A stretch of DNA of 64,000 bases from Planctomycetota bacterium (lineage in GTDB: Bacteria > Planctomycetota > B15-G4 > SIAN01), in the NCBI GenBank assembly GCA_031409275.1, contig JANNXA010000055.1:320001-384000 (forward strand). Reading direction: 5' to 3'. Under the pieces are notes generated by a model. The model had not been told where the DNA came from. It did no database searches and saw nothing but the letters and a program-made list of their open reading frames with translations. Positions 13,915-33,620 of the stretch are shown here, piece after piece (the stretch's first letter is position 1; every line of letters starts with the position of its first letter). The translations under genes and the position numbers were made by a program.

Positions 13915-14565
13915 ATGGCTGCCGCGGAAAACTCCGCTCCGACCCCTCCCCCGCGCCGTCTCTTCTTCGCCGCCGGGCTGCGCGCCCTGTTCCGAGGAGT
14001 CGAGTCGGCATCGACGTCGCTCCAGGGGGTCTTGCCGCAGGCGCAGAAGGCGCTGGCCAAGTTGCGCCCGCCGAGCAGCGAGCCGCTCTTGCGCCCGCCA
14101 GGAGCCCTGCCCGAGGTGACGTTCGCGGCGACCTGCCAGCGCAGCGGTGAGTGCGTGACCGCCTGCCCGGTCCACGCGTTGCGGCCGCTGCGCTCTCCCG
14201 ACCCGACGCGCGACGGGACGCCCTACCTCGTTCCGAGCCAGCAAGCGTGCGTCGTCTGCGAGGACCTGTCGTGCATGAAGGCGTGTCCGAGCGGCGCGCT
14301 GACGCTGGTGGCCAAGGAGGCGATCCGCATCGGCCTCGCCCAGGTCCACTTCGACGACTGCCGGCGCAGTTTCGGCGAGCCGTGCCGCGAGTGCGTCGAC
14401 CGGTGCCCGCTCGGCAGCGCCGCGATCCGACTCGACGAGCGCGGCCGAGTGGAAGTGAGCGCCAGCGGTTGCGTCGGCTGCGGCGTGTGCGAGTACTTCT
14501 GCCCGACCGCGCCGCGCGCGATCACGATCCAGGCTTTCGCGGCGCCTCCGGCTCGAGCCCGATGA
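13915..14565 (+). CDS. NapG/MauM-like polyferredoxin (4Fe-4S dicluster protein)
   Basis: LRPPGAL.E..F...C, GTPY, CxxCxxxxCxxxCP, CxxCxxxCP, CVGCGVCEYFCP; N-terminal RRLFF. Confidence 0.85.
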   Translation: MAAAENSAPTPPPRRLFFAAGLRALFRGVESASTSLQGVLPQAQKALAKLRPPSSEPLLRPPGALPEVTFAATCQRSGECVTACPVHALRPLRSPDPTRDGTPYLVPSQQACVVCEDLSCMKACPSGALTLVAKEAIRIGLAQVHFDDCRRSFGEPCRECVDRCPLGSAAIRLDERGRVEVSASGCVGCGVCEYFCPTAPRAITIQAFAAPPARAR

Positions 14566-15484
14566 GTTCGCACGGAATCGCTTGCTGCACGGCGTCGACC
14601 TGGTCCGCGGGCGCCTTCAACAGAGCGTCGAGACCGGCGAACAACGTCTGCACCGCCTGCTCACGCGAGTAGCTGACCAGCGCCAGCCGCGCCCCCGTCG
14701 TCCGCGCATCGGTCTGCAGCGCCGGATCGTCGCTGATGCCCGCAACGCATGCGGTCGCCGCCAGCCCGCCTCGCTTCACTGCAGCGATCGCGACCGCCGT
14801 GCTCTGCGGATCGCCCGCGATCACCGCGTCGATCCGCTCCATGCGCGCCATCAAGGCGAGCAGCCGCTCCAGCGTGTCCTCGTTCGAGAAGCCGAGGGGA
14901 TGACGCAACCGAACTTCGACCTTGCCGAGCCGCTGCTCGACCGCCCGGATCGCGAATTCGGCGCGCTTGCGCGATTCGGGCCAGCGCGCATCCTCGACCA
15001 CGATGACGCACGGCTCCGTCACGCCGTCGGCCGCCAGGCGCGCGGCCACGCGCTCGCCCGCTTCGCTGGCCAACATCGAGCTCGGGACCCCGACCCAGGC
15101 ACCGCTGAGCGCATCCCCGTGAAGCGCGAGCAGCAGCGGCACCTCGCGATCGGCCGCGAGTCGACGCGCGCGCTGCAACAGGTCGGGCGCCGCCGGAAAG
15201 AAGACGATCGCTTCGACTTTCAGATCTACGAGCGCCAGCACCGCCGCCTCGGTCGCCGTCGCACTGCCGTAGCCCGGACGCACGTCGAGCTCGCGCCCGC
15301 GGCGGCGCGCCTCGTCCAGAAGCAGCGCCTCGAGTCCATCCTGCGGCTCACCCAGGACGACGCCGAGGCGCGGCAGCGCCTTCGGTGGCGCCACTGCGCC
15401 GGGATCGGCGACCGCCGCCGGCTTGTCGCCGCACGCCGCCGCTGCCAGCGCGCACCACGACCACGCCGCGAGCCGGCGACCCAT
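14522..15484 (-). CDS. Lipoprotein, type I periplasmic-binding-protein-like
   Basis: Lipobox AAAAC; pattern LGVV..EARRRG..L..VEAIVFFP..VPLL..R...F..IDAVIA resembling sugar-binding PBP-I, but divergent. Confidence 0.6.
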   Translation of the reverse strand: MGRRLAAWSWCALAAAACGDKPAAVADPGAVAPPKALPRLGVVLGEPQDGLEALLLDEARRRGRELDVRPGYGSATATEAAVLALVDLKVEAIVFFPAAPDLLQRARRLAADREVPLLLALHGDALSGAWVGVPSSMLASEAGERVAARLAADGVTEPCVIVVEDARWPESRKRAEFAIRAVEQRLGKVEVRLRHPLGFSNEDTLERLLALMARMERIDAVIAGDPQSTAVAIAAVKRGGLAATACVAGISDDPALQTDARTTGARLALVSYSREQAVQTLFAGLDALLKAPADQVDAVQQAIPCELIGLEPEAPRKPGS

Positions 15485-15679
15485 CGTTTCACTCGCCAAT
15501 TGGAGCTCCCGATCCCTGCGACCCTTCTCGATCGGGGCGCGATCATGCAATCCTTCGGCCGCCGACCATCGGGCGCAAGGCGGGCCGCTGAATCTGAGCG
15601 ATCGCGTCCGGAGAAGCGCGATCTCGCGCGCACCCAACGCGGCTCCGGGCGGCCGCCGGGCGAGGCCGCCGATTTCTTG

Positions 15680-15695
15680 TGGCATCCGTCGTGCT
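15680..15695 (+). promoter_or_regulatory. Possible sigma54 (-24/-12) promoter
   Basis: TGGCATCCGTCGTGCT has exact GG-N10-GC spacing, about 50 bp upstream of the HEAT-repeat gene. Confidence 0.4.
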
Positions 15696-21489: not shown

Positions 21490-21532
21490 CCTTGCTACGC
21501 CGTGTTTGGCACCCGGGAAGAGGAGAAAACGA

Positions 21533-24532
21533 GTGTCCGATTTCGCCCGAGCTCCGCTCGTGAAACTCGCCCTTGCGAGCGTCACGTGGCTCGCCTGGAC
21601 CCACGCCGCCTCTGCCCAGACGCGCGTTGGCTCGTTCGTTGACGGGGAACGGCCGATGTACCTCGAGGTCCCGCCATTCGTTGATGGACAGGCGATTCAC
21701 CTCGAACTGCGCAACGTGCCGGCGGGCGCGAAGGCTCCGCTGCTGATCTGGAGCCTAGGCACCGATCTGATCGACCTCACGCCGGCGGGCGTGCCCGGCT
21801 CGCTCGGCCCTGACCTCACCATGGGGTCGCTCGAGTCGATGGACGCGGTCAACTTCACTTACGACGACGTCATTCCGACCGGACTCGCCGGCACCACGGT
21901 CTATCTGCAGGCCTACGTGAAGCTCCCCGGCGGCATCGGGCGACTCAGCTCGATGACGGCCACGCGCATCATCAACGTCGGCGACGATCCCGGCACCGCT
22001 CCCACCGTCAAGTTCCCGTTGCCGGTCACGGTCAGCGAACTGCTCGCTCCAGGAACCGCAGGTTTCGATCGCACGCTCGAAGCGCTGCGCGTCGGCGTTC
22101 CGCTGCCGAAAGGGCACGTCCTCGAGTCGAACGGCATTCCGCAACTGACCGTGCTCGGCGGCGCCGGTGAGGCGCAGTTTTCGACGCTCGCGAAGTGGGA
22201 CGACGGCAGCGTCAAGTGGGCGCTTTGCGAATGGCGCACAAGCCTCACGGCAGGCACTTCATCGACGGCGTTCTCGATCGACAAAGGGGCCGGCAACTTC
22301 GGTGGCGCGAATCTCGCCACGACGAGCGGGACGACCATCACCGTCGACACTGGCTCGGTCAAGGTGACCTTCGATCCGACCAAGAACGACCTGTTCGACA
22401 GCTACGTCCGTAGCAGTCGCGAAGTCTTCGACACGACGAAAGGCAACGGCCCCCGTTTCTGGGACTCGGCCGACGTCGAGTGGACGTGGCACGAAACCGC
22501 CGCCACGTTGCGGCGCAACGGCCCGGTGCGCGCGGAGGTGCAGATCGATGGCGCCTTCACGCGCACCAGCGCCAGCGACGACGCCGATCGCCTCTACGTG
22601 CGCTTCTACGTCGAGCTGACGAAAGGCTCTGCGGCCGCGAAGGTGACCGTCTCGCTGCGCGACAGCGCGCTCTCTTTTCCCGAACACCTGCTCTATCGCG
22701 GATTCACGTTTCGCGCCTACTTGAATGAGACCGGCACGCTCGACGTACGCCTCCCCGAGACGTCGACCGACGGCCTGCCGCAGAACCTCTGGAGCGGCCA
22801 GCTCACCGCCAGCGGCGACACCGCGCTGTTCAACCAGGGGTTCGCGCGCCTCAAGAACGACGAACTCTGCTACGACCCTAACTGGTCGAACTTCGTGCCG
22901 CTGCTCGAGCGGTTCGGCAACGACGTCTTCGCGAGCGAGGGTGTCCAGGCACGCATCGGCGCGACCTACTTCACCGGCGACGTGACCACCGGCTACCGGA
23001 CCGGCGAGCGCGAGTTCGCCGACCCGACCTTCATCGAAGTCAACGCGTCGAATGGGCGCGGAGTGCTCATGGGCCTGCCCTATGCGCGCTACTTCTGGCC
23101 GATCGAGGTCGCGGCGGCAGGCGATGGCCGCTGCGAGGTCGGCATCCTGCCGCACAAGGATCCCGCCGACACCTACAACTACACGCTCACCTACGCGAGC
23201 GCCGAAACCCGCTTCTTCTGGATCATGCCCGAAGGCGCGAAGGCGGCCGACCCGGTCGCCACGGCGTTCCCGTTCGATGCCCCCCTCGCCGCGCGTGCCG
23301 ACACCTGGGTCTACAACCAGTCCGACGTCTGGCACTGGAAGCTGGTCACGAAGCCGGAAGTCGACACCTACTGCACGCTCTCCGGCCTGCGGAAGCCGGC
23401 CCCCTCTTCGACTGACGTCGTGCGCACGATCTACGAGTACTCGAACACCACCGGCGGCGGCAGCAACAACTGGGAGGAGACGCGACGCTTCTATCAGTGG
23501 CTGCGCTTGGGCCTCGGCGGTGCGGCAATCAACTCGTGGATGGAGGCGTACTACAAAGTCGACAAGATGCCGTGGATCATCGACGATGGCACCGTCAGCC
23601 AACGCGCCTCGGTCCGCAACAAGACGGCGGTCGTGACGAAGAAGGACGACTACTACAACAACTCGAAGCACACCTATTGGCAGGTCGTCCCGGACTGGGG
23701 CTTCTCGCACGGCGACACCTACCTGCTCGACAGCGGCCGTCACATGTCGGAAACGCTGCTCGACAGCACCATCTCAGGCAACGTCGAGCCGAACGGCAAC
23801 TTCGTGAGCGGGACCTACGGCGCGATCATCAACGCGGCCGTCGCGGTGCTCGACTACTACGAGGATCCCGCGCTCCAGGGCTGGGCGCATCAGATCGTCT
23901 ACGAGTGGACCAACATCGTCTTTCAGGTCGACAACAACTTCGGCGTCAACACCGACAAGCGCGGCTGGCAGGCGCCGATCGGGACACCGGCCGGCCAGGC
24001 CGCCAACCCGGACGGTTACATCGTCTCGTGGGACGCCGGCAAGTCCTCCGACAAGGCGTCCTACGGCTACACCACGCAAGGATGGACCGACATCCGCAAC
24101 GGCTCTCAGGCCTTCGAACGCTACGTTCATTACCTGCGCGAGCACGATCCGTCCGACCCGCTCCTCGGCGATCTGCTGGCGCGCGGCGAGGACTGGTACC
24201 ACTACGCCCACCGCTCGATCCGCGACGACTGGCAGCTGCTGACGGGCGACCTCTACATCATCGACGTGTTCCGCGGCGACGCGGGGAACCCGGTGGTCGA
24301 CCCCTTCGAGGAGCCCGGCTTCGACATCGAGCAGGACGACCAGATCGGCTACGCGTTGCAGTCGATCGTCAACTTGAAGCTCGAGAACGAGATCTCGGAG
24401 ACCGCCTTCTCGTACGGTGTCGAGATGCACCGCAGCATGAGCAAGGGCACCTACGACTCGTACATCAATGACCCGATCCTGAACGAGTTCATCTGGCGCT
24501 ACCTCGTCCACTACGGCCTGCTCAAGCCGTGA
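21533..24532 (+). CDS. Large secreted PcRGLX/YetA-like protein, paralog 1 (~999 aa)
   Basis: AGGAG RBS + GTG; signal peptide ending ASA-Q; RVGVPLPKG..QFSTLAKWDDGSVKWAL, TVDTG, NGPVRAEV as in PcRGLX N-terminal and beta-sandwich domains; W/Y-rich helical C-terminus. Confidence 0.65.
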   Translation: MSDFARAPLVKLALASVTWLAWTHAASAQTRVGSFVDGERPMYLEVPPFVDGQAIHLELRNVPAGAKAPLLIWSLGTDLIDLTPAGVPGSLGPDLTMGSLESMDAVNFTYDDVIPTGLAGTTVYLQAYVKLPGGIGRLSSMTATRIINVGDDPGTAPTVKFPLPVTVSELLAPGTAGFDRTLEALRVGVPLPKGHVLESNGIPQLTVLGGAGEAQFSTLAKWDDGSVKWALCEWRTSLTAGTSSTAFSIDKGAGNFGGANLATTSGTTITVDTGSVKVTFDPTKNDLFDSYVRSSREVFDTTKGNGPRFWDSADVEWTWHETAATLRRNGPVRAEVQIDGAFTRTSASDDADRLYVRFYVELTKGSAAAKVTVSLRDSALSFPEHLLYRGFTFRAYLNETGTLDVRLPETSTDGLPQNLWSGQLTASGDTALFNQGFARLKNDELCYDPNWSNFVPLLERFGNDVFASEGVQARIGATYFTGDVTTGYRTGEREFADPTFIEVNASNGRGVLMGLPYARYFWPIEVAAAGDGRCEVGILPHKDPADTYNYTLTYASAETRFFWIMPEGAKAADPVATAFPFDAPLAARADTWVYNQSDVWHWKLVTKPEVDTYCTLSGLRKPAPSSTDVVRTIYEYSNTTGGGSNNWEETRRFYQWLRLGLGGAAINSWMEAYYKVDKMPWIIDDGTVSQRASVRNKTAVVTKKDDYYNNSKHTYWQVVPDWGFSHGDTYLLDSGRHMSETLLDSTISGNVEPNGNFVSGTYGAIINAAVAVLDYYEDPALQGWAHQIVYEWTNIVFQVDNNFGVNTDKRGWQAPIGTPAGQAANPDGYIVSWDAGKSSDKASYGYTTQGWTDIRNGSQAFERYVHYLREHDPSDPLLGDLLARGEDWYHYAHRSIRDDWQLLTGDLYIIDVFRGDAGNPVVDPFEEPGFDIEQDDQIGYALQSIVNLKLENEISETAFSYGVEMHRSMSKGTYDSYINDPILNEFIWRYLVHYGLLKP

Positions 24533-24567
24533 CCTAGCGCGTCGCGAACGAACGAGAACGATCCTGA

Positions 24568-24613
24568 TTCCGCCCGTCGCCGGGAGAGTTCCGGCGGCGG
24601 GCGGAACCTTTTT
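24568..24613 (+). terminator. Intrinsic terminator after paralog 1
   Basis: 16-bp stem TTCCGCCCGTCGCCGG / CCGGCGGCGGGCGGAA (one G-U pair) followed by CCTTTTT. Confidence 0.85.
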
Positions 24614-24705
24614 CAGACCAGCCCACGCTTCAGAGCGAGCCTCCCGACACCGAACTCACTGCTCGACGGATTCGAGCACCTGGGGATTCGGAGGTCTGGA
24701 ACGAC

Positions 24706-27681
24706 ATGCTGAAGCACTTCGCAGTTCCATCACTCGTCGCTGCGCTCGCCCTGGGGGCGAGTGCGCAGTCAACGACGACATCGACGATCGGCTCGTTCGT
24801 GAGCGGGGAGCGACCCTACTACCTTGAGGTCGACCAGTTCGCTGACAACCAGCCGTACACGGTCAAGTTCATGAACCTGCCGGCGGGTGCCACCGACGTC
24901 ACGCTCTACCTCTCGCCGAAGATCGTCGTGGTCAAGCACCCCGATGCTTCCGCGCCGGGCAACTTCGGCATCGACCTCGCCTCGGCCACCACCATCAAGG
25001 TCACGGGCAGCAGCTACAGCGGCACCGTCAACGGCGCCACCTGCAACGGCCCGATGTACATGCAGGGCTACTTCAAGACCGCGGCCGGCGGCCGCCTCAC
25101 CTCGCTGGTCGAGCTGTTCCCCGACAGCGCGCTGACGTCGCCTCCGTCGCAATCGATCTCGTTCCCGCTGCCGCTGGTGACGCAGGAAGTCCTGCGCCCC
25201 GGCAAGAAGGGGGTCGACCGGACCGCCCAGGCGGTGCGTGTCGGCGTGCCGCTGCCAAAGGGACAGGTCTTCGAGAAGAACGGCGTCCCGCAGATGACCC
25301 TCACCGGCGGCCCGAAGGAGGGGCAGTTCTCGACGCTCGCCAAGTGGAGCGACGGCAGCTGCAAGTGGGTGCTCGCCGAGTACCGCGCCGACGTTCTGGC
25401 CGGCCAGACCAACAGCTCGATCAAGGTCGACAAGGGCACCGGCAACTTCGGCGGTTCCGACCTCGCGACCGTCAGCGGCACGGTGACGACCGTCGACACC
25501 GGCGCGATGAAACTGACCATCGACTCGAGCAAGCCCGATCTCTTCCAGTCGCTGCAGGCGAACGGCCGCGACCTGATCTCGACCTCCGCCGGCAACAAGC
25601 CCCACTTCTGGGACGACAAGGACGTCGAGTGGACCTGGCACAAGACGTCGGTCAAGACGCGGCGCAACGGACCGGTCCGCAGCGAGATCGAGGTGGACGG
25701 CATGTTCACCCGCTCGTCGTCGGCGACCGACGCCGACCGGATCCTGGTTCGCTTCTACCTCGAAGCGGCGAAGGGCTCGTCCGCGCTGCGCGCGACGGTG
25801 TCCCTGCGCGACACCAGCATCCAGTTCCCCGAGCACCTGATGTTCCGCGGCTTCACCTACCGCCTGCAGTTGAACGAGTCGGGCCCGTTCGACGTGCGCA
25901 TGCCCAAGCCGGCGCTGCTCGGTGACGCGGTCACCTTGCACAGCGGCTCGATCGGCAGCGGGCAGGATGCGGCCTTCGTCAGCGGCTACGTGCGCCGCTC
26001 CGACTATCGCCTGCAGACCGACCCGAACTCCTCGTCGCACTACGGCTTCGTCCAGCGCAACGGCGCCGACGACTTCGCCGTCGAAGGCGTCTGCGCGCGC
26101 ATCGGCAGCACGAACTTCTGCGGCTCTTCGGCGACCAACTGGTTCTCCGCGGAAGGCGAGTTCTCCGACCCGTCGTTCGTCGAGCTCAACTCGCAGTCGT
26201 CCGGCCGCGGCACGGTCTTCGGCATCGAGCACGCCTGCCGGACCTGGCCGGTGAGCATGGAAGCCGGCGGCGACGGACGCGTCGAGATCGGCCTGCTGCC
26301 GCGCAAGAAGTCGAGCGACACCTACCTCTATCCGCTGACCTACGCCAGCGCGGAGACGCGCAGCTTCTATCTCTCCTTCGAGACCGCGCGCGCCGCGGAC
26401 CCCTTCGCGGTGGCGACGAGCTTCGACTACCCGGTCGTCGCCCGCGCCGACCTCTTCGCCTACAACCAGGCGCAGGTGTGGCCGTGGAACCTCGTCTCGG
26501 AAGCGGACGCGAAGAGCTACCAGACCTTCGCCAACATCCGCACGACCCAGCCCGACAAGTCCGATCCGGCCCGCACCAACTATCGCTTCGCGGGCGGCAC
26601 CGGCGGCGGCAACAACAACTGGGAGGAGACGCGCCGCTTCTACCACTGGCTGCGCACCGGCAACGGCGGCTCGTACTTCAGCTCGCTGTTCGAGGCGTAC
26701 TACAAGGTCGACAAGATGGCCTGGAACATCGATGACGGCCGCCTGGCCGATCGCCAGAAGATCCGCAACTCGACCGCCAAGGTGACGCGCAAGTCGGACA
26801 TGTACGACGGCAGCAAGCACACCTTCTTCCAGGCGGTCCCCGACTGGGCCTTCGCCCGCGGCGAGACCTACCTGCTCGACGCCGCCAAGCCGCTGGCGGA
26901 GACGATCCTCGACAAGTCGATCTCGCCGAACGTGCAGCCGAACGGCAACTTCGTGCAAGGCACCTACGGCGCGGTCACGGATGCCGCGTGCGCCGCACTC
27001 GCGCTCGGCCCCAATCAGGAGCTCGAGGACTGGCTGCACCTGATCATGTACCAGTGGGCGAACGTGGTCTTCCAGCAGAGCAACAGCTTCGGAGTGAACA
27101 CCGGCACGCTCGGCTGGCAGGCGCCGGTCGGCACGCCGGAAGGCAGCGCGACCAACCCCGACGGCTACATGATCACGTGGTCGGCCGGCAAGGCCTCCGA
27201 CAAGGCGAAGTACGGCTACATGTCGCAGATCTGGACCGACCTGCGCGGCAACTCGCTCGCCTTCAAGAACTACTCGCACTTCCTCGCCGAGAAGGCGCCG
27301 ACCGATCCGCTGCTCTCCGACCTGCTCTACCGCTCGGCGGACATGTACCACTACGCGCGCCGCGGCCTGATCGATGACCACAACCGCAACACCGGCGACT
27401 ACTACATCACCGACGTCTTCGCCGGCGACGCGGGCAACAGCAAGCCCAACCCGCTCTCAGCTCCGGGCGCCTTCATCGACAAGCCCAACACCAGCGGCTA
27501 CTCGAACCAGAGCATCGTCAACTTCCTCCTCGACTTCCGCGCGAGCGAGTCGGCCTACAGCTACGGGGTCGAGCTGAACCGCAGCATGTCGGAGACGACC
27601 TACCAGCACATGGTGAACGACCCGATCCTGAACGACTTCATCTATCGCTACCTGGTGCACTACGGCGTCATCAAGCCGTGA
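24706..27681 (+). CDS. Large secreted PcRGLX/YetA-like protein, paralog 2 (991 aa)
   Basis: GGAGG RBS; signal peptide ASA-Q; collinear with paralog 1 along its whole length (NNWEETRRFY, EAYYKVDKM, PNGNFV.GTYGA, NDPILN.FI.RYLVHYG..KP). Confidence 0.65.
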   Translation: MLKHFAVPSLVAALALGASAQSTTTSTIGSFVSGERPYYLEVDQFADNQPYTVKFMNLPAGATDVTLYLSPKIVVVKHPDASAPGNFGIDLASATTIKVTGSSYSGTVNGATCNGPMYMQGYFKTAAGGRLTSLVELFPDSALTSPPSQSISFPLPLVTQEVLRPGKKGVDRTAQAVRVGVPLPKGQVFEKNGVPQMTLTGGPKEGQFSTLAKWSDGSCKWVLAEYRADVLAGQTNSSIKVDKGTGNFGGSDLATVSGTVTTVDTGAMKLTIDSSKPDLFQSLQANGRDLISTSAGNKPHFWDDKDVEWTWHKTSVKTRRNGPVRSEIEVDGMFTRSSSATDADRILVRFYLEAAKGSSALRATVSLRDTSIQFPEHLMFRGFTYRLQLNESGPFDVRMPKPALLGDAVTLHSGSIGSGQDAAFVSGYVRRSDYRLQTDPNSSSHYGFVQRNGADDFAVEGVCARIGSTNFCGSSATNWFSAEGEFSDPSFVELNSQSSGRGTVFGIEHACRTWPVSMEAGGDGRVEIGLLPRKKSSDTYLYPLTYASAETRSFYLSFETARAADPFAVATSFDYPVVARADLFAYNQAQVWPWNLVSEADAKSYQTFANIRTTQPDKSDPARTNYRFAGGTGGGNNNWEETRRFYHWLRTGNGGSYFSSLFEAYYKVDKMAWNIDDGRLADRQKIRNSTAKVTRKSDMYDGSKHTFFQAVPDWAFARGETYLLDAAKPLAETILDKSISPNVQPNGNFVQGTYGAVTDAACAALALGPNQELEDWLHLIMYQWANVVFQQSNSFGVNTGTLGWQAPVGTPEGSATNPDGYMITWSAGKASDKAKYGYMSQIWTDLRGNSLAFKNYSHFLAEKAPTDPLLSDLLYRSADMYHYARRGLIDDHNRNTGDYYITDVFAGDAGNSKPNPLSAPGAFIDKPNTSGYSNQSIVNFLLDFRASESAYSYGVELNRSMSETTYQHMVNDPILNDFIYRYLVHYGVIKP

Positions 27682-27727: not shown

Positions 27728-27758
27728 GCGCCCGCGCCGGAACTCCCGGCGCGGGCGC
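27728..27758. terminator. Hairpin between convergent genes (probable bidirectional terminator)
   Basis: Perfect 13-bp stem GCGCCCGCGCCGG-aactc-CCGGCGCGGGCGC. Confidence 0.7.
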
Positions 27759-29229: not shown

Positions 29230-29310
29230 TCGCCCGTGGACGATCGGGACCCGGCCCATTCCGGGAGTGGACCTCGCCACTTCTTGCGCTCGCTGCAACC
29301 AAGGAGAGCG

Positions 29311-29901
29311 GTGGAAGACGACCGCGCGCTGGCCGAGGCGGCTTCGCGCGGCGATCGCGTCGCGTTCGACCAGTTGGTCGACCGCTACCTCGATCGCACG
29401 CTGCGCATCTGCGTCCGACTCCTCGGCAACTACGAGGATGCGGAGGACGCCGTGCAGGAGACCTTCGCCCGCGCCTGGTCGCGGCTGAAGAGCTTCGCCG
29501 GTCGCTCGACCTTCGGCACCTGGGTCACCACGATCGCGCTGCGCCACTGCACCGACGTCGACCGCGCGCGCAAGAGCCGCCGCCGCCACGTGCGCGAGCT
29601 GCCCGCCGACTTCGACGCCGACCGCGATGGAGCCGCCTCGCGCGCCGCGACTCCGCCCCGCGCGGTCGAGCAACGCGAACTGCTGCTGCAGGTCGAGGGA
29701 GCGCTGGCCCGACTGCCGACGCGGCTGCGCACGGCGCTGACGTTGCGCACCATCGAGGGGCTCGAGTACGAGGAAGTCGCGCGCACGATGGGCACGTCAA
29801 TCCGCTCCGCGCGCCTCTACGTCTGGGAAGCGCGTCAACGGTTGACGCGCGAACTCGAACTCGGACCCGCAACGCGCCCCGCTTCCGAGGAGCGCCCATG
29901 A
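29311..29901 (+). CDS. ECF RNA polymerase sigma factor
   Basis: AAGGAG RBS + GTG; AFDQLV.RY, DAEDAVQETF..AW, F.TWV..IA (region 2); LP.RLR.AL.LR..EGL.YEEVA (region 4). Confidence 0.93.
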   Translation: MEDDRALAEAASRGDRVAFDQLVDRYLDRTLRICVRLLGNYEDAEDAVQETFARAWSRLKSFAGRSTFGTWVTTIALRHCTDVDRARKSRRRHVRELPADFDADRDGAASRAATPPRAVEQRELLLQVEGALARLPTRLRTALTLRTIEGLEYEEVARTMGTSIRSARLYVWEARQRLTRELELGPATRPASEERP

Positions 29902-31730
29902 GCCGCTGCCGCCACGCGCGCGACCTGCACGACTACGTCGACCGCGAGCTGCCGCTCGACGCCGCGCTCGCCTTCGAGGCGCACCTCGATTCCTGCGCGA
30001 GCTGCCGCGCCGAACTCGCCGCGGCGCGCGCGCTCGACGACGCATTGCTGGCGCTGCCGCGGCCGCGCCTCGCCACCGCCGATCGCCAACGGCTGCGCGC
30101 AGCGATCGCAACCCGCATCGATGCTCCGACCGGAAGCGCGCGACCGATCGATCGCCCCAGCCTGCGTCGCCTGGCGCCACTCGCCGCGGCGGCGGCCGCG
30201 CTGGCGGCCGGCGTCACGCTGTTCGTGCTGCTGCGCGCGCCGCCGCGCGCCAACCCGCCGACCCCGACCCCCTCGGCCACCCCCAACTCCGCGGGCTCCC
30301 AAGCTGCGACCGCCCCGGCGACGCCCGCCAGCCTCTTCGCCGTCGCCCCCAACGACGCCGGCCGCGCCGATGTGCACTCCGAAGTGGCCGCGATCCTCCG
30401 CCAATTGGCGAAAGGCCACGCTGCCGCCGAAGGGGGCGAGCTCCTGACCAACTTCCTCGTCGCGATCGAGCCGCTGCGCCAGCGTGGGTTGCCCATCGCG
30501 TCGACGCTGCTCGCGCTCCTCCACGACGAGGATGGCGAGCTCGCCACGACCGGCGCGCAACTCCTCGCCACCGCCGTCGTCGCGGGAACCGTCCGTCGCG
30601 ACGAGCCTGGGCTGATCGCCACGCTCGACCGCGCGCTGCGCCGGGCGGACCGCGCGACCGCGATGCTGCACGCGCTCGAGGCGATCGGCACTCGCGGCGC
30701 CTACGAAGCGATCGTGAACGCTGCGGCGATCCCGAACCTGCGCGAGCCGGTGCTCTTCGCTCTTGCCGGGGCCGGACGGGCCGACACGCGCGAAGCGCTG
30801 CAACGCTGCCTGATCGAGCTGCTGCGCGGACGGCCCACCGACGTCGCGCTGGCCGAGCGCGTCGTCGCGCGCCTCGCGATTCGCAACGTCGAGTCGCTGC
30901 AACTGCTGGCGGCGCTCGCACGCGCTGGCCTCACGCCAGCGCTCGTCGACGAACGGCTCGAGCGCACTGCCGCCACGGCACGCCCGCTGCTCGCGGCCGC
31001 GCTGCGCGGCGACGATCCAGCGGCGCGCCGCGACGCCCTTTCGCTGGCGCCGCGGGCCGGCGACCCCACGCTTGCCGACGCGATCGTCGACGCCGCGATC
31101 GCCTACGAAGAGGGCGCCGCCGCGCTCGCGGCATTGCGCGCGCTCGGCGGTACCCCCGCCCTGCTCGCCGTCGCCCGCTGGAAGAGCGCCAGCGTGCCGA
31201 CGAAGTCGCTGTCGCAGCTCGGCGAGGAGTGCTTCGCCGCGATCGCAGCGGCGACCCCTCCAGCCGATCTGGCGCAGGCGGTCGCCGACGTCGGCGGCAT
31301 GACGCCGCGCATCGCGCTCGCGTTCGCCGACCTCGCCATCACCGCCGGCGGCGCGGGTGGCCCGCCGTTGCGCGCCGCGCTCCTCGACCATCCGCTCTCG
31401 ACCGGCGAGTTGCGCGCACGCGCCGCGCTGGCGATCGCGCGCGGCCACGAGCCGTTCGCGCCGGAGCGCGCGCTCGCGCTGCTGACGGCGCTCGCGCCTG
31501 AACTCGTCGACGACGCGAATGCCGATGGCGGGCTCGCCGGCGCGCTGCTCGTGCTGCTCTACGAGCATGGCCGCGAAGCGGAGCTGACGCGCGGGCTCGC
31601 GGCACTCGGCTGGACCAAGTCGCGCGCTCAGGTCGCGCGGCTCGCGGCGGCCGCGCGGCGCATCCTCGACGAGCGTTCGCTCGACCGCAGCGTGGAGCGC
31701 CTCGACACGCTGCTCGCGCTTGGCCCGTAG
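29898..31730 (+). CDS. Zinc-binding (ZAS/zf-HC2) transmembrane anti-sigma factor with large helical-repeat extracytoplasmic domain
   Basis: ATGA-coupled to sigma; C..L.DYVD.EL...FEAHLDSCASC; single TM helix; Pro-rich linker; Ala/Leu HEAT-like repeats. Confidence 0.85.
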   Translation: MSRCRHARDLHDYVDRELPLDAALAFEAHLDSCASCRAELAAARALDDALLALPRPRLATADRQRLRAAIATRIDAPTGSARPIDRPSLRRLAPLAAAAAALAAGVTLFVLLRAPPRANPPTPTPSATPNSAGSQAATAPATPASLFAVAPNDAGRADVHSEVAAILRQLAKGHAAAEGGELLTNFLVAIEPLRQRGLPIASTLLALLHDEDGELATTGAQLLATAVVAGTVRRDEPGLIATLDRALRRADRATAMLHALEAIGTRGAYEAIVNAAAIPNLREPVLFALAGAGRADTREALQRCLIELLRGRPTDVALAERVVARLAIRNVESLQLLAALARAGLTPALVDERLERTAATARPLLAAALRGDDPAARRDALSLAPRAGDPTLADAIVDAAIAYEEGAAALAALRALGGTPALLAVARWKSASVPTKSLSQLGEECFAAIAAATPPADLAQAVADVGGMTPRIALAFADLAITAGGAGGPPLRAALLDHPLSTGELRARAALAIARGHEPFAPERALALLTALAPELVDDANADGGLAGALLVLLYEHGREAELTRGLAALGWTKSRAQVARLAAAARRILDERSLDRSVERLDTLLALGP

Positions 31731-31748
31731 CCACGGCGCGCGACGCGT

Positions 31749-31776
31749 GCATGGACGTGCGAGCGCGATCTCCGTC
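31749..31776 (+). promoter_or_regulatory. Putative ECF promoter of the secretin-like gene
   Basis: GCATGGAC-N14-TCCGTC, second copy of the motif upstream of the sigma gene. Confidence 0.65.
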
Positions 31777-31835
31777 TCACGTTGATGCACGCGACCACCG
31801 GGCTCTCCGGTGCGCGCGAGCGCTTGGAGGATCCG

Positions 31836-33620
31836 ATGGTGCTCACGTCGTGGCTCGCTGCCGCACTCCTGTCCGCTGCGCCGTTGTCCGGGAACGATGA
31901 GCAAGGCGCCGGCGCGCGCCGCCCGCTGGTGCTGCAGCGCCACTCGATCTCGGCGCTCACTCACGCGAGCGTGTCGCCTTGCGCCGCGCTCAACCTGCTG
32001 CCGCTCGCCCAACCCAATGACGCCAACGGGGGTGACGGCGGCGAGGGCGAGCTTCGGAGCGCGCTCGAGACCGACTACGTCATCGAACTGGTGCGGACGG
32101 TCGTCGAGCCGAGTGGCTGGGAGAACGATGGTTGGCGGCTGGAGAGCTTCGATGGCGGCGCTCTCGTCGTCGTGGCTCCCAACGACGTGCAGGCGAAGAT
32201 CGGCGAGCTCCTCGCGACGCTCGAACGCGATCTGCTGCCGAGCGAACGGCTCGAAGTGCGCCTGCTTCCGGGCGGCAGCGCGGCGTTCTCCAGTTCGAGC
32301 GGCCTGCTGGTCGACCGCGCCACGGCCGATCAGCGCCTCGCCGGCAAGGGCGCGCTCCACCTCGCGCGCGTCTCGCTGCGCGACCTGCAACCGGTCGGCG
32401 GCAGCTTCGGCGAGACGCAGGAGTTCACTTCGCAGTTCGACCTCCAGATCGCCGAGAGCGCCGTGACGACGACTCCACGGCGATCGAGCTGGCTGCGCGG
32501 GCTGCGACTCCTCGCGCGCGCCACCCGCGTCGACGCCGGCGCGCTGGTGCAACTGGTCGTCAGCGCGGCCGATCCGGTCGCACCCACCGATGCCACCGCC
32601 TTCGACGCTGCGTCGACGATCGCGCTCGACTCATCGCTCGCGACGCGCAAGGCGATCGGTCGCCTCGACCAGCCGCACGTCGGATTCGTCTCCTTCGCGG
32701 GCACCGTGCTGCTGCCCGAAGGCAAGGCGCTGTGGCTGCCCGTCTCGATCCACACGGCGTCGGGCGAGGTCGAATGCACGCTCGACCTGCGCTGCGAGCT
32801 GGGCAGCAGCCGCCCTTGCGCGGTCATCGAGCCGATCGCCCGCAGCGAGGGCGAAGCGTTGCGGCTGTCTCTGCGACGCGCCCTGCCGAGCTCGCTCGGA
32901 CGGGTGCAGCTCGGCCGCCTCGGCATCACCTGTTCCGGCCTTTCGGACGCCGACCCGCTCTTCAACCGGCGCTTCGCGGGCGACCAGGCCCCCATCGCGC
33001 GCTTCGGTGAGGCGATCTCCGCCGAGGGCGCGTGCGCCATGGCCAGCTCGATGGTCCAGGAGGTCCTCGACACCGATCCGTGGTGCCAGGTCGGGCTGCT
33101 CGGTTCCGGGCTGCGCACGCTGCTTCCGCCCGCCGCCAGCAACGTGGTGACGGCAGCGCTTGCGACCCTGACCGGCGGCGATGGCGGCGCCACGATCCGC
33201 GCGCGCGTACGCATCGGCGGTGAACTGCGCGGCGAGTTCGCCGTCCCCGCGATGGTCGACCAACCGCTCGCGCTGTGGACCGGCGTCAACACGCTGCTGG
33301 TGCAGGGCTGGGACGCCGACGTCGCCAGCAACGTCGCCGGCCCATCTCCGTTGACCCAATCGTTCCTGGATGGACTCGCGCTGCATCTGCTGCTCGAGCG
33401 TGGCGTCCGTGGCGAGCTGCACCTCAGCGTCAACGCGGCCGCGCAGCTCCTGACGGCACCCGCTGCGCTCGTCAGCGTCGGCGACGCGAGCGACCTGTCG
33501 GTCCATCAGGTGCGCGCCAGCGTGCTGGCGATCGATGAGCTGGTGTCGCTGCCGGCGCGTGGCGGCAGCGTGACGCTCGGCGGCGACGTCCAGCTCGAGC
33601 TCGAGGTGATCCCGAACTGA
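31836..33620 (+). CDS. Secreted protein with two secretin-like (NolW/N-domain + beta) modules
   Basis: GGAGG RBS, signal peptide; ELVRTVVEPSGW..ALVVVAPNDVQAKIGELLATL resembles secretin N domains; duplicated segments FDLQIAESA..P..W.RGL.L and WDADVASNV..P..F.DGL.L. Confidence 0.5.
   Translation: MVLTSWLAAALLSAAPLSGNDEQGAGARRPLVLQRHSISALTHASVSPCAALNLLPLAQPNDANGGDGGEGELRSALETDYVIELVRTVVEPSGWENDGWRLESFDGGALVVVAPNDVQAKIGELLATLERDLLPSERLEVRLLPGGSAAFSSSSGLLVDRATADQRLAGKGALHLARVSLRDLQPVGGSFGETQEFTSQFDLQIAESAVTTTPRRSSWLRGLRLLARATRVDAGALVQLVVSAADPVAPTDATAFDAASTIALDSSLATRKAIGRLDQPHVGFVSFAGTVLLPEGKALWLPVSIHTASGEVECTLDLRCELGSSRPCAVIEPIARSEGEALRLSLRRALPSSLGRVQLGRLGITCSGLSDADPLFNRRFAGDQAPIARFGEAISAEGACAMASSMVQEVLDTDPWCQVGLLGSGLRTLLPPAASNVVTAALATLTGGDGGATIRARVRIGGELRGEFAVPAMVDQPLALWTGVNTLLVQGWDADVASNVAGPSPLTQSFLDGLALHLLLERGVRGELHLSVNAAAQLLTAPAALVSVGDASDLSVHQVRASVLAIDELVSLPARGGSVTLGGDVQLELEVIPN

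Follow-up and report, generated by a model that had tools for sequence, protein, structure and literature searches.

What two tandem genes for large, predicted exported proteins do in an uncultured planctomycete lineage is the question raised by a 64,000-nucleotide stretch of Planctomycetota bacterium assembly GCA_031409275.1 (contig JANNXA010000055.1, positions 320,001 to 384,000, forward strand), the whole of which we call the window. Genes A (product P0001) and B (product P0002) encode paralogs that are predicted to be exported and to adopt a fold like that of PcRGLX, the polysaccharide lyase family 26 (PL26) enzyme of Penicillium chrysogenum. Tentatively, with a probability of about 0.4, we read them as envelope-attached enzymes whose target for trimming would be the polysaccharide of the cell's own surface rather than pectin; they would probably cut it by a lyase-type elimination in which His705 (gene B numbering) is the base. 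This reading is favored by the fold match, the conservation of His705, the glycan context of related genes, the polymer loci of the same genome, the failure to find uronate-catabolism markers, the steady presence of the genes across genomes, and precedent among lyases. The pair and the domains of gene B are laid out as follows, in window coordinates.

21533..24532, forward strand: gene A, intact open reading frame (ORF), 999 amino acids, GTG start
24706..27681, forward strand: gene B, intact ORF, 991 amino acids, ATG start, same architecture as gene A
24706..24765, forward strand: predicted signal peptide of gene B, amino acids 1 to 20, from sequence features
24784..25125, forward strand: N-terminal all-beta module of gene B, amino acids ca. 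27 to 140, from the model and profile comparison
25153..25455, forward strand: PcRGLX-like RIFT barrel of gene B, amino acids ca. 150 to 250, from PF19501
25456..26430, forward strand: beta-supersandwich of gene B, amino acids ca. 251 to 575, from a weak PF21345 match and the structure match
26431..27678, forward strand: predicted (alpha/alpha)6 toroid of gene B, amino acids ca. 576 to 991, from the model, with invariant polar residues where six alternate helices begin
26818..26820, forward strand: codon of His705, candidate catalytic residue, conserved in 187 of 188 relatives

The two proteins can be aligned end to end at 51% identity, a value that drops to 33% in the N-terminal module and lies between 51 and 57% in the other three domains. 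A first-pass annotation of the window had described two collinear, diverged paralogs sharing a series of sequence blocks, and this description held, since both ORFs are intact where it placed them and every quoted block was found in the alignment of the two proteins. The richness in Asn, Thr, Tyr, and Trp that it remarked on was borne out as well (20.2% in A and 18.6% in B versus 5.2 to 12.5% in nine other genes of the window), and by this measure the pair ranks 15 and 32 among the 3,338 roughly called genes of the genome. The signal peptides that it proposed agree with N-termini that, read from the sequence, are short, basic and then hydrophobic, and end in A-x-A; this judgment also draws on a low predicted local distance difference test score (pLDDT) over residues 1 to 24. 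Beyond the N-terminus, no stretch of transmembrane strength was seen in either protein.

The AlphaFold2 model of the gene B product, built from a 79-sequence alignment, reached a pLDDT of 93.4 and a predicted template modeling (TM) score of 0.92. With the full model, Foldseek placed PcRGLX first (E, 2.6e-19; 13% identity), ahead of a runner-up with an E value of 1.2e-7. VIA-align superposed model residues 150 to 987 onto residues 24 to 924 of the PcRGLX chain (651 residues; Z, 24.0; root mean square deviation, 4.6), and the next entry (Z, 17.4) covered the sandwich alone. As in PcRGLX (PDB 5XQ3, 5XQG, 5XQJ, and 5XQO), a RIFT barrel, a beta-supersandwich, and an (alpha/alpha)6 toroid follow one another in the model, and gene A is laid out in the same way, from a predicted signal peptide and a planctomycete beta module to the barrel, the supersandwich, and the toroid. 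Along similar lines, all ten listed neighbors of an Atlas model of a homologue were PcRGLX-like clusters or relatives (TM scores of 0.61 to 0.64 to uncharacterized relatives). In the model, therefore, the C-terminal ca. 415 amino acids form the alpha/alpha toroid that had been proposed from the sequence, and, as had also been proposed, no characterized family claims this domain at the sequence level. The PcRGLX/YetA-like barrel is present too, but not as the N-terminal domain, because a separate module of ca. 115 amino acids precedes it. No characterized family was matched at high identity, and the putative pocket of the toroid is deduced from conservation and secondary structure rather than from coordinates.

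At the sequence level, the barrel profile PF19501 weakly matched P0002 (23.0 bits, with a cutoff of 22.1; E, 7e-5) and P0001 (20.4 bits; E, 4.5e-4), as well as 33 of 36 clade members at E values of up to 1. The profile of the central beta-sandwich, PF21345, stayed under the Pfam cutoff (E, 0.019; 17 of 36 clade members at E values of up to 1), although this domain superposes structurally on PcRGLX and relatives exceed the cutoff. Searches of solved structures by sequence with P0002, A2, and A3 as queries gave no significant match, and nine clan proteins tested against NCBIfam had none.

Given this three-domain, PcRGLX-like architecture, which ends in the predicted (alpha/alpha)6 toroid, the simplest proposal would be that A and B are ordinary PL26 exo-rhamnogalacturonan lyases. 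PMC13501991 gives the activity of PL26 as that of an exo-lyase on rhamnogalacturonan I. The catalytic-domain profile of this family, PF21346, had no match in the genome studied, whereas two control genomes were positive, nor in scans of 36 clade members and 42 relatives. The toroid loop of PL26 carries an RH..-H-W motif, which we take to be catalytic; it is present in PcRGLX, and its RH pair occurs in 13 of the 15 PF21346-matching proteins shown, compared with 0 of 40 clade members. Identity in the structural alignment was 13% (12 to 14% overall), A and B have an N-terminal module in addition to the three domains of PcRGLX, and His705 aligns, through intermediates, with Arg627 of PcRGLX (numbering of the deposited sequence), which comes after the SAKQ stretch. 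Profile comparison of the toroid linked the family to its relatives at 99.5% and these relatives to PF21346-type domains at 98.3%, with only 1.2% for the direct comparison. Thus, the toroid is not a new fold, since intermediate families connect it, as a distant homologue, to the catalytic domain of PL26, and genes A and B are not members of PL26. We consider ordinary PL26 activity highly improbable; what we have is a known scaffold in an uncharacterized family. The different set of conserved pocket residues on a PcRGLX-type fold makes a separate, putative enzyme family likely.

Close counterparts of the pair include proteins that match PF19501 or PF21345 without PF21346 (named "YetA-like" or "RIFT barrel domain"), to which a clade from the family designated f4 belongs. 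They share with our clade 20 to 33% identity from the barrel into the toroid, as well as an invariant His and Gly719, and none of those encountered had a named function. In contrast to them, our clade has Lys for the Glu that precedes the His, has replaced three arginines, and stands on its own stem.

The fold was less informative about chemistry. When the C-terminal domain was modeled in isolation (a poor model; pLDDT, 65) and compared with 48,161 chains, the best rows were mostly (alpha/alpha)6 carbohydrate enzymes with near-tied scores, and Foldseek with this toroid-only model gave no match at E values of ≤0.001. Unsaturated glycuronyl hydrolases of glycoside hydrolase (GH) families GH105 and GH88, PL27, GH76, and AGE-family epimerases share the toroid (Z of 11 to 15 on the isolated domain), but at 6 to 12% identity, and none of them has the barrel and sandwich so arranged. 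The GH105/GH88 profile PF07470 was unmatched in the genome, genes A and B included, and absent from the Pfam scan of P0001 and P0002; that of GH127/GH146 beta-L-arabinofuranosidases, PF07944, had no match among the 36 clade members and matched 3 of 42 distant relatives. Since the toroid scores are nearly tied, fold alone does not name the chemistry, which the first-pass annotation had inferred to be that of a lyase or hydrolase. Modification of the polymer instead of cutting it, by C5 or C2 epimerases of the dermatan sulfate epimerase or AGE type with a His in the same toroid, has to be weighed here, given that the near-tied matches include cellobiose 2-epimerases and dermatan sulfate epimerase (Z, 11.9 to 13.1) and that proton abstraction is common to lyase and epimerase chemistry. 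However, no more than one invariant His is shared with the wider group, and the architecture of the whole protein is that of PcRGLX, and we regard epimerization as quite unlikely.

In order to see which residues have been retained, we took a column census of 188 sequences (40 of our clade, 43 of the f4 clade, and 105 others), loose motif counts for two Arg-containing stretches having proved too noisy; equivalences with PcRGLX come from sequence and profile alignments. His705, which corresponds to His713 of gene A, was kept in 40 of 40, 43 of 43, and 104 of 105 sequences, respectively. Around it, the picture differs. An Arg near 744 to 748, where the register is ambiguous between two alignments four residues apart, is present in 147 of the 148 sequences outside our clade and replaced within it. 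Arg819 (142 of 148 outside) is Asp in 39 of our 40, Arg841 (122 of 148) is Gln in all 40, and the Glu that precedes the conserved His in relatives has likewise become Lys in all 40. The clade has also gained invariant Lys, Asp, Arg, and Tyr residues. In the model, six alternate toroid helices (starting at 640, 710, 751, 842, 935, and 973) begin with conserved residues, and invariant Asn637/Trp639, Lys704/His705/Gln709, Asn748, Tyr838/Gln841, Tyr932, and Asp972 lie at or just before those positions. This face of (alpha/alpha)6 barrels usually carries the active site. The pattern suggests a pocket that is live but rewired. Arginines in lyases commonly neutralize uronate carboxylates, so the replacement of three of them suggests that the substrate, or its charge, is likely to have changed.

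A rewired pocket could also bind without cutting, and A and B would then be abundant, noncatalytic glycan-binding surface proteins derived from a former lyase. The loss of the PL26 RH motif and of the three conserved arginines would fit this, as would the codon bias of gene B (self-consistent rank of 21 among the 3,338 rough gene calls) and the fact that the gene ranked first, on contig C9, also has the shared module at its N-terminus. Yet the ranks of gene A (1,109) and of a third paralog (1,735) are low, codon bias is only a proxy for expression, and, besides the near-universal His705, the toroid has about 40 polar or aromatic positions with a conservation of 97% or higher in a clade spanning 42 to 87% identity. 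A purely binding role thus appears unlikely.

Distribution bears on the trimming of self-made polysaccharide. The close family comprises ca. 40 sequences, and the nearest named relatives are from Planctomycetota metagenome-assembled genomes. A toroid profile searched over 42 genomes of the class was positive in 7 of 8 genomes of the same family (f1, this genome counted) and in all 16 of family f4, a steady presence that we count in favor, and in none of the 18 genomes of three other families. In a tree of 266 core sequences (from 304 after duplicate removal), the close family is a clade (support, 1.0; stem branch, 0.95) that divides into an A group (0.996) and a B group (0.991), plus unpaired basal members, indicating that the tandem pair is an old, retained duplication; the pair recurs with the same neighbors in relatives. 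The genome has a third paralog on contig C30 (L002:1498-4569), of the B type and 69% identical to gene B, with a Cys-containing, lipoprotein-like signal and a Gly-rich linker. It is convergent with a di-heme cytochrome c peroxidase-like gene bearing a repeated tail domain (see below). More broadly, 634 representative proteins match the query, and in a genome from elsewhere in the phylum (G057) we noted a large clan expansion, with 14 weak PcRGLX-like barrel matches and no PF21346 match.

The polysaccharide context is clearest in the relatives. In 14 of the 16 f4 genomes, no more than 7 kb separate one homologue from a gene for a polysaccharide deacetylase, and in the two misses the genes are on different contigs. 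The locus contains genes for a WecA-like transferase, family 4 glycosyltransferases (GT4), a flippase-like protein, GNAT and methyltransferase proteins, and B12 radical-SAM proteins, and it represents an undescribed pathway for a modified glycan. Glycosyltransferase and AsnB genes on the same strand flank the homologues in L118 and L120, joined in L120 by a Wzy-like gene, and a more distant homologue (L011) lies among GT4 and exosortase genes. The genome itself has polymer loci of three kinds, with exosortase/GT4/AsnB, Wza/Wzz/Wzy, and deacetylase/Wzy genes. The idea that the loss of arginines tracks amidated uronates was only half supported: AsnB is present in the exosortase locus of this genome, but the L118 and L120 homologues, from a part of the tree that generally keeps the arginines, also sit beside AsnB.

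With these loci as the source of a substrate, the steps of self-polysaccharide trimming would be the following. Both proteins would be exported by a Sec-dependent route and held at the envelope by the N-terminal module, where they would cut, by elimination with His705 as the base, a polymer that the Wzx/Wzy loci of the same cell produce. The sugar or charge at the cut site may be altered relative to the substrates of relatives, and, given fixed differences between A and B beside the His site (positions 627, 629, 630, 701, and 702, i.e., 627 to 630 and 701 to 702), the two paralogs may prefer different substrates. According to PMC8377490, one His or Tyr often serves as both base and acid in metal-independent lyases. 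PMC12993940 proposes that lyases inside polymer biosynthesis clusters, RbmB of Vibrio and AlgL of Pseudomonas, process the polymer that the cell itself makes, of Wzx/Wzy type or alginate, and release of chains, control of their length, or clearing, as proposed for these two, would be the biological role here. The likeness is one of proposed role. AlgL was among the isolated-toroid matches (Z, 10.7), and unlike RbmB and AlgL, genes A and B stand outside any biosynthesis cluster.

Secreted feeding enzymes, lyases or hydrolases acting on an environmental glycan such as an exopolysaccharide from algae or bacteria, whose uptake and breakdown would be encoded at other sites, would explain other observations. 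The sole solved structural match is a catabolic enzyme, and the N-terminal module also occurs in proteins with protease, lactonase, or esterase annotations. PA14, LamG, or CBM96 domains are present in distant homologues, and sulfatase-family genes flank some homologues (L008, L116, and L198). On the other hand, and as the first-pass annotation had stated, no permease or carbohydrate-active enzyme family, glycoside hydrolases included, was found among the neighbors scanned. The uronate-catabolism markers GH88/GH105, KduI, UxaC, and UxuA were not found in this genome (93% complete), GH88/GH105 was above the cutoff in 0 of 8 f1 genomes, and the presence of the genes is family-wide and not patchy. 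Together, these data make feeding rather unlikely.

Several observations weigh against the trimming of self-made polysaccharide. Genes A and B are themselves outside any glycan locus, and co-occurrence of the f4 glycan locus with our clade was ruled out, its markers being found in 0 of 8 f1 genomes with two queries, so the evidence from context is borrowed from relatives at 20 to 30% identity, whose placement as a sister clade has low support in the tree (0.34). The 16 f4 genomes are kin and not independent cases, further f4 paralogs lie outside glycan loci, and weaker deacetylase homologues occur in 8 of 12 genomes of family f2, which has no match to our family. KDPG aldolase is present in this genome. 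The loss of the three arginines weakens an interpretation as uronate lyases, and with the isolated toroid (the model with a pLDDT of 65) GH105 (Z, 14.3) scored above PcRGLX (Z, 11.6), with no clear winner.

The attachment step depends on the N-terminal module, which the first-pass annotation missed, together with the third paralog and the link of the relatives to polysaccharide biosynthesis. A first profile of the module found the three paralogs only; the wider connection came from the reverse search, in which an iterated profile seeded from the neighbor of the third paralog found 62 ORFs in the genome (e.g., L002:22-1473). About 50 of them carry a domain of ca. 113 amino acids ending 5 to 9 residues from the C-terminus, and several others have it at the N-terminus; gene A appeared in the same search at an E value of 0.049. 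Profile-profile comparison of the module with this repeated tail gave 87% over 85 columns, compared with <1% for windows wholly downstream. When the iterated profile was compared with 199 stored proteins, 23 rows exceeded 3 bits, and 22 of these came from N-terminal modules, or fragments, of the close family. Carriers of the repeated domain that were scanned had no Pfam or NCBIfam name, and Atlas grouped the module (scores of 0.93 to 0.94) with Pfam-less clusters that are commonest in Planctomycetota, with structure matches on Kelch, lactonase, reprolysin, and esterase proteins (TM scores of 0.70 to 0.78). We infer that the module serves surface attachment, and the repeated domain is a candidate sorting or surface-attachment module.

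In a broader perspective, genes A and B might be founding members of a new carbohydrate-active enzyme family, in which a PL26-like scaffold with a pocket recharged around the kept His (three Arg lost, Lys and Asp gained) and a planctomycete-specific surface module would remodel an undescribed, possibly charge-masked envelope polymer, as one branch of a large self-polysaccharide-processing clan now mislabeled as pectin lyases. Taken as a whole, this proposal is speculative and somewhat unlikely. The fold is already known, and uncharacterized families resembling carbohydrate-active enzymes are not rare. Still, the searches by sequence and by fold yielded a single solved structure for the PcRGLX clan, against hundreds of representative proteins that match the query, and the pair is a soluble-looking, well-modeled test case with a named candidate residue and a clear contrast with relatives. 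Any activity detected in the pair would establish a new enzyme family and provide a tool for probing the surface polymers of this lineage. At the level of listings, with most subscription papers outside coverage, literature searches returned nothing on the family or its N-terminal module, and the main text of PMC11131199, in the part available, does not mention PL26.

The signals around the two genes are as follows.

21520..21525, forward strand: GAGGAG, ribosome-binding-site-like, 7 nucleotides before the GTG of gene A
24568..24615, forward strand: terminator-like hairpin between genes A and B, 18 pairs, T-run included
27728..27758, forward strand: GC hairpin between gene B and the convergent phosphodiesterase gene, 13 pairs

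The first-pass annotation had given each gene its own downstream hairpin. Both are present, but only that of gene A (stem at 24568 to 24606, with the T-run behind it) is terminator-like; that of gene B lacks a proper T-run and was passed over by the terminator scan, although a stem resembling it is present 3' of the second gene in five of six relatives examined. Each hairpin core is single copy at tight matching, which rules out a REP-like repeat. In one RNA run with 6% of the words, four of the eight listed pieces were on gene B, with few differences; RNA contigs can neither rank genes nor prove transcription, and this result was not used as evidence.

The pair is flanked by an amidohydrolase gene and the convergent phosphodiesterase gene, a synteny kept in kin. 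About 6 kb upstream, a periplasmic-binding-protein-like gene (14522 to 15685, reverse strand) scored below the Pfam cutoff, with no permease among the neighbors scanned. At 29236 to 33620 (forward strand) there are genes for an extracytoplasmic function (ECF) sigma factor and a zinc-finger anti-sigma-like protein, followed by a 612-amino-acid gene without a Pfam or NCBIfam match, in an order partly conserved in relatives.

Elsewhere, the f4 locus (L200, L202, L205, L208, L210, and L211), a surface-glycan locus that is conserved, includes two B12 radical-SAM genes, methyltransferase, GNAT, and deacetylase genes, and a gene for a Pfam-less protein of ca. 410 amino acids that was found in all 16 f4 genomes but in none of 26 others. 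In the genome studied here, L196 (G000:C36:54000-73999) has the MlaD-methyltransferase gene order seen around an f4 homologue, minus the intervening radical-SAM and PcRGLX-like genes, and an exosortase gene with GT4 and AsnB-like genes (L243:5020-14913; G000:C40) forms a PEP-CTERM-type exopolysaccharide locus. Finally, contig C9 carries four tandem Cys/Asp-rich paralogs of ca. 340 amino acids with the repeated domain at the N-terminus (L239:10195-15190; G000:C9:26035-31189), behind a gene for an ECF sigma factor, with a flippase-like gene nearby. The two that were scanned had no Pfam match, the last copy ranks first of 3,338 in codon bias, and they are possibly a major surface protein.

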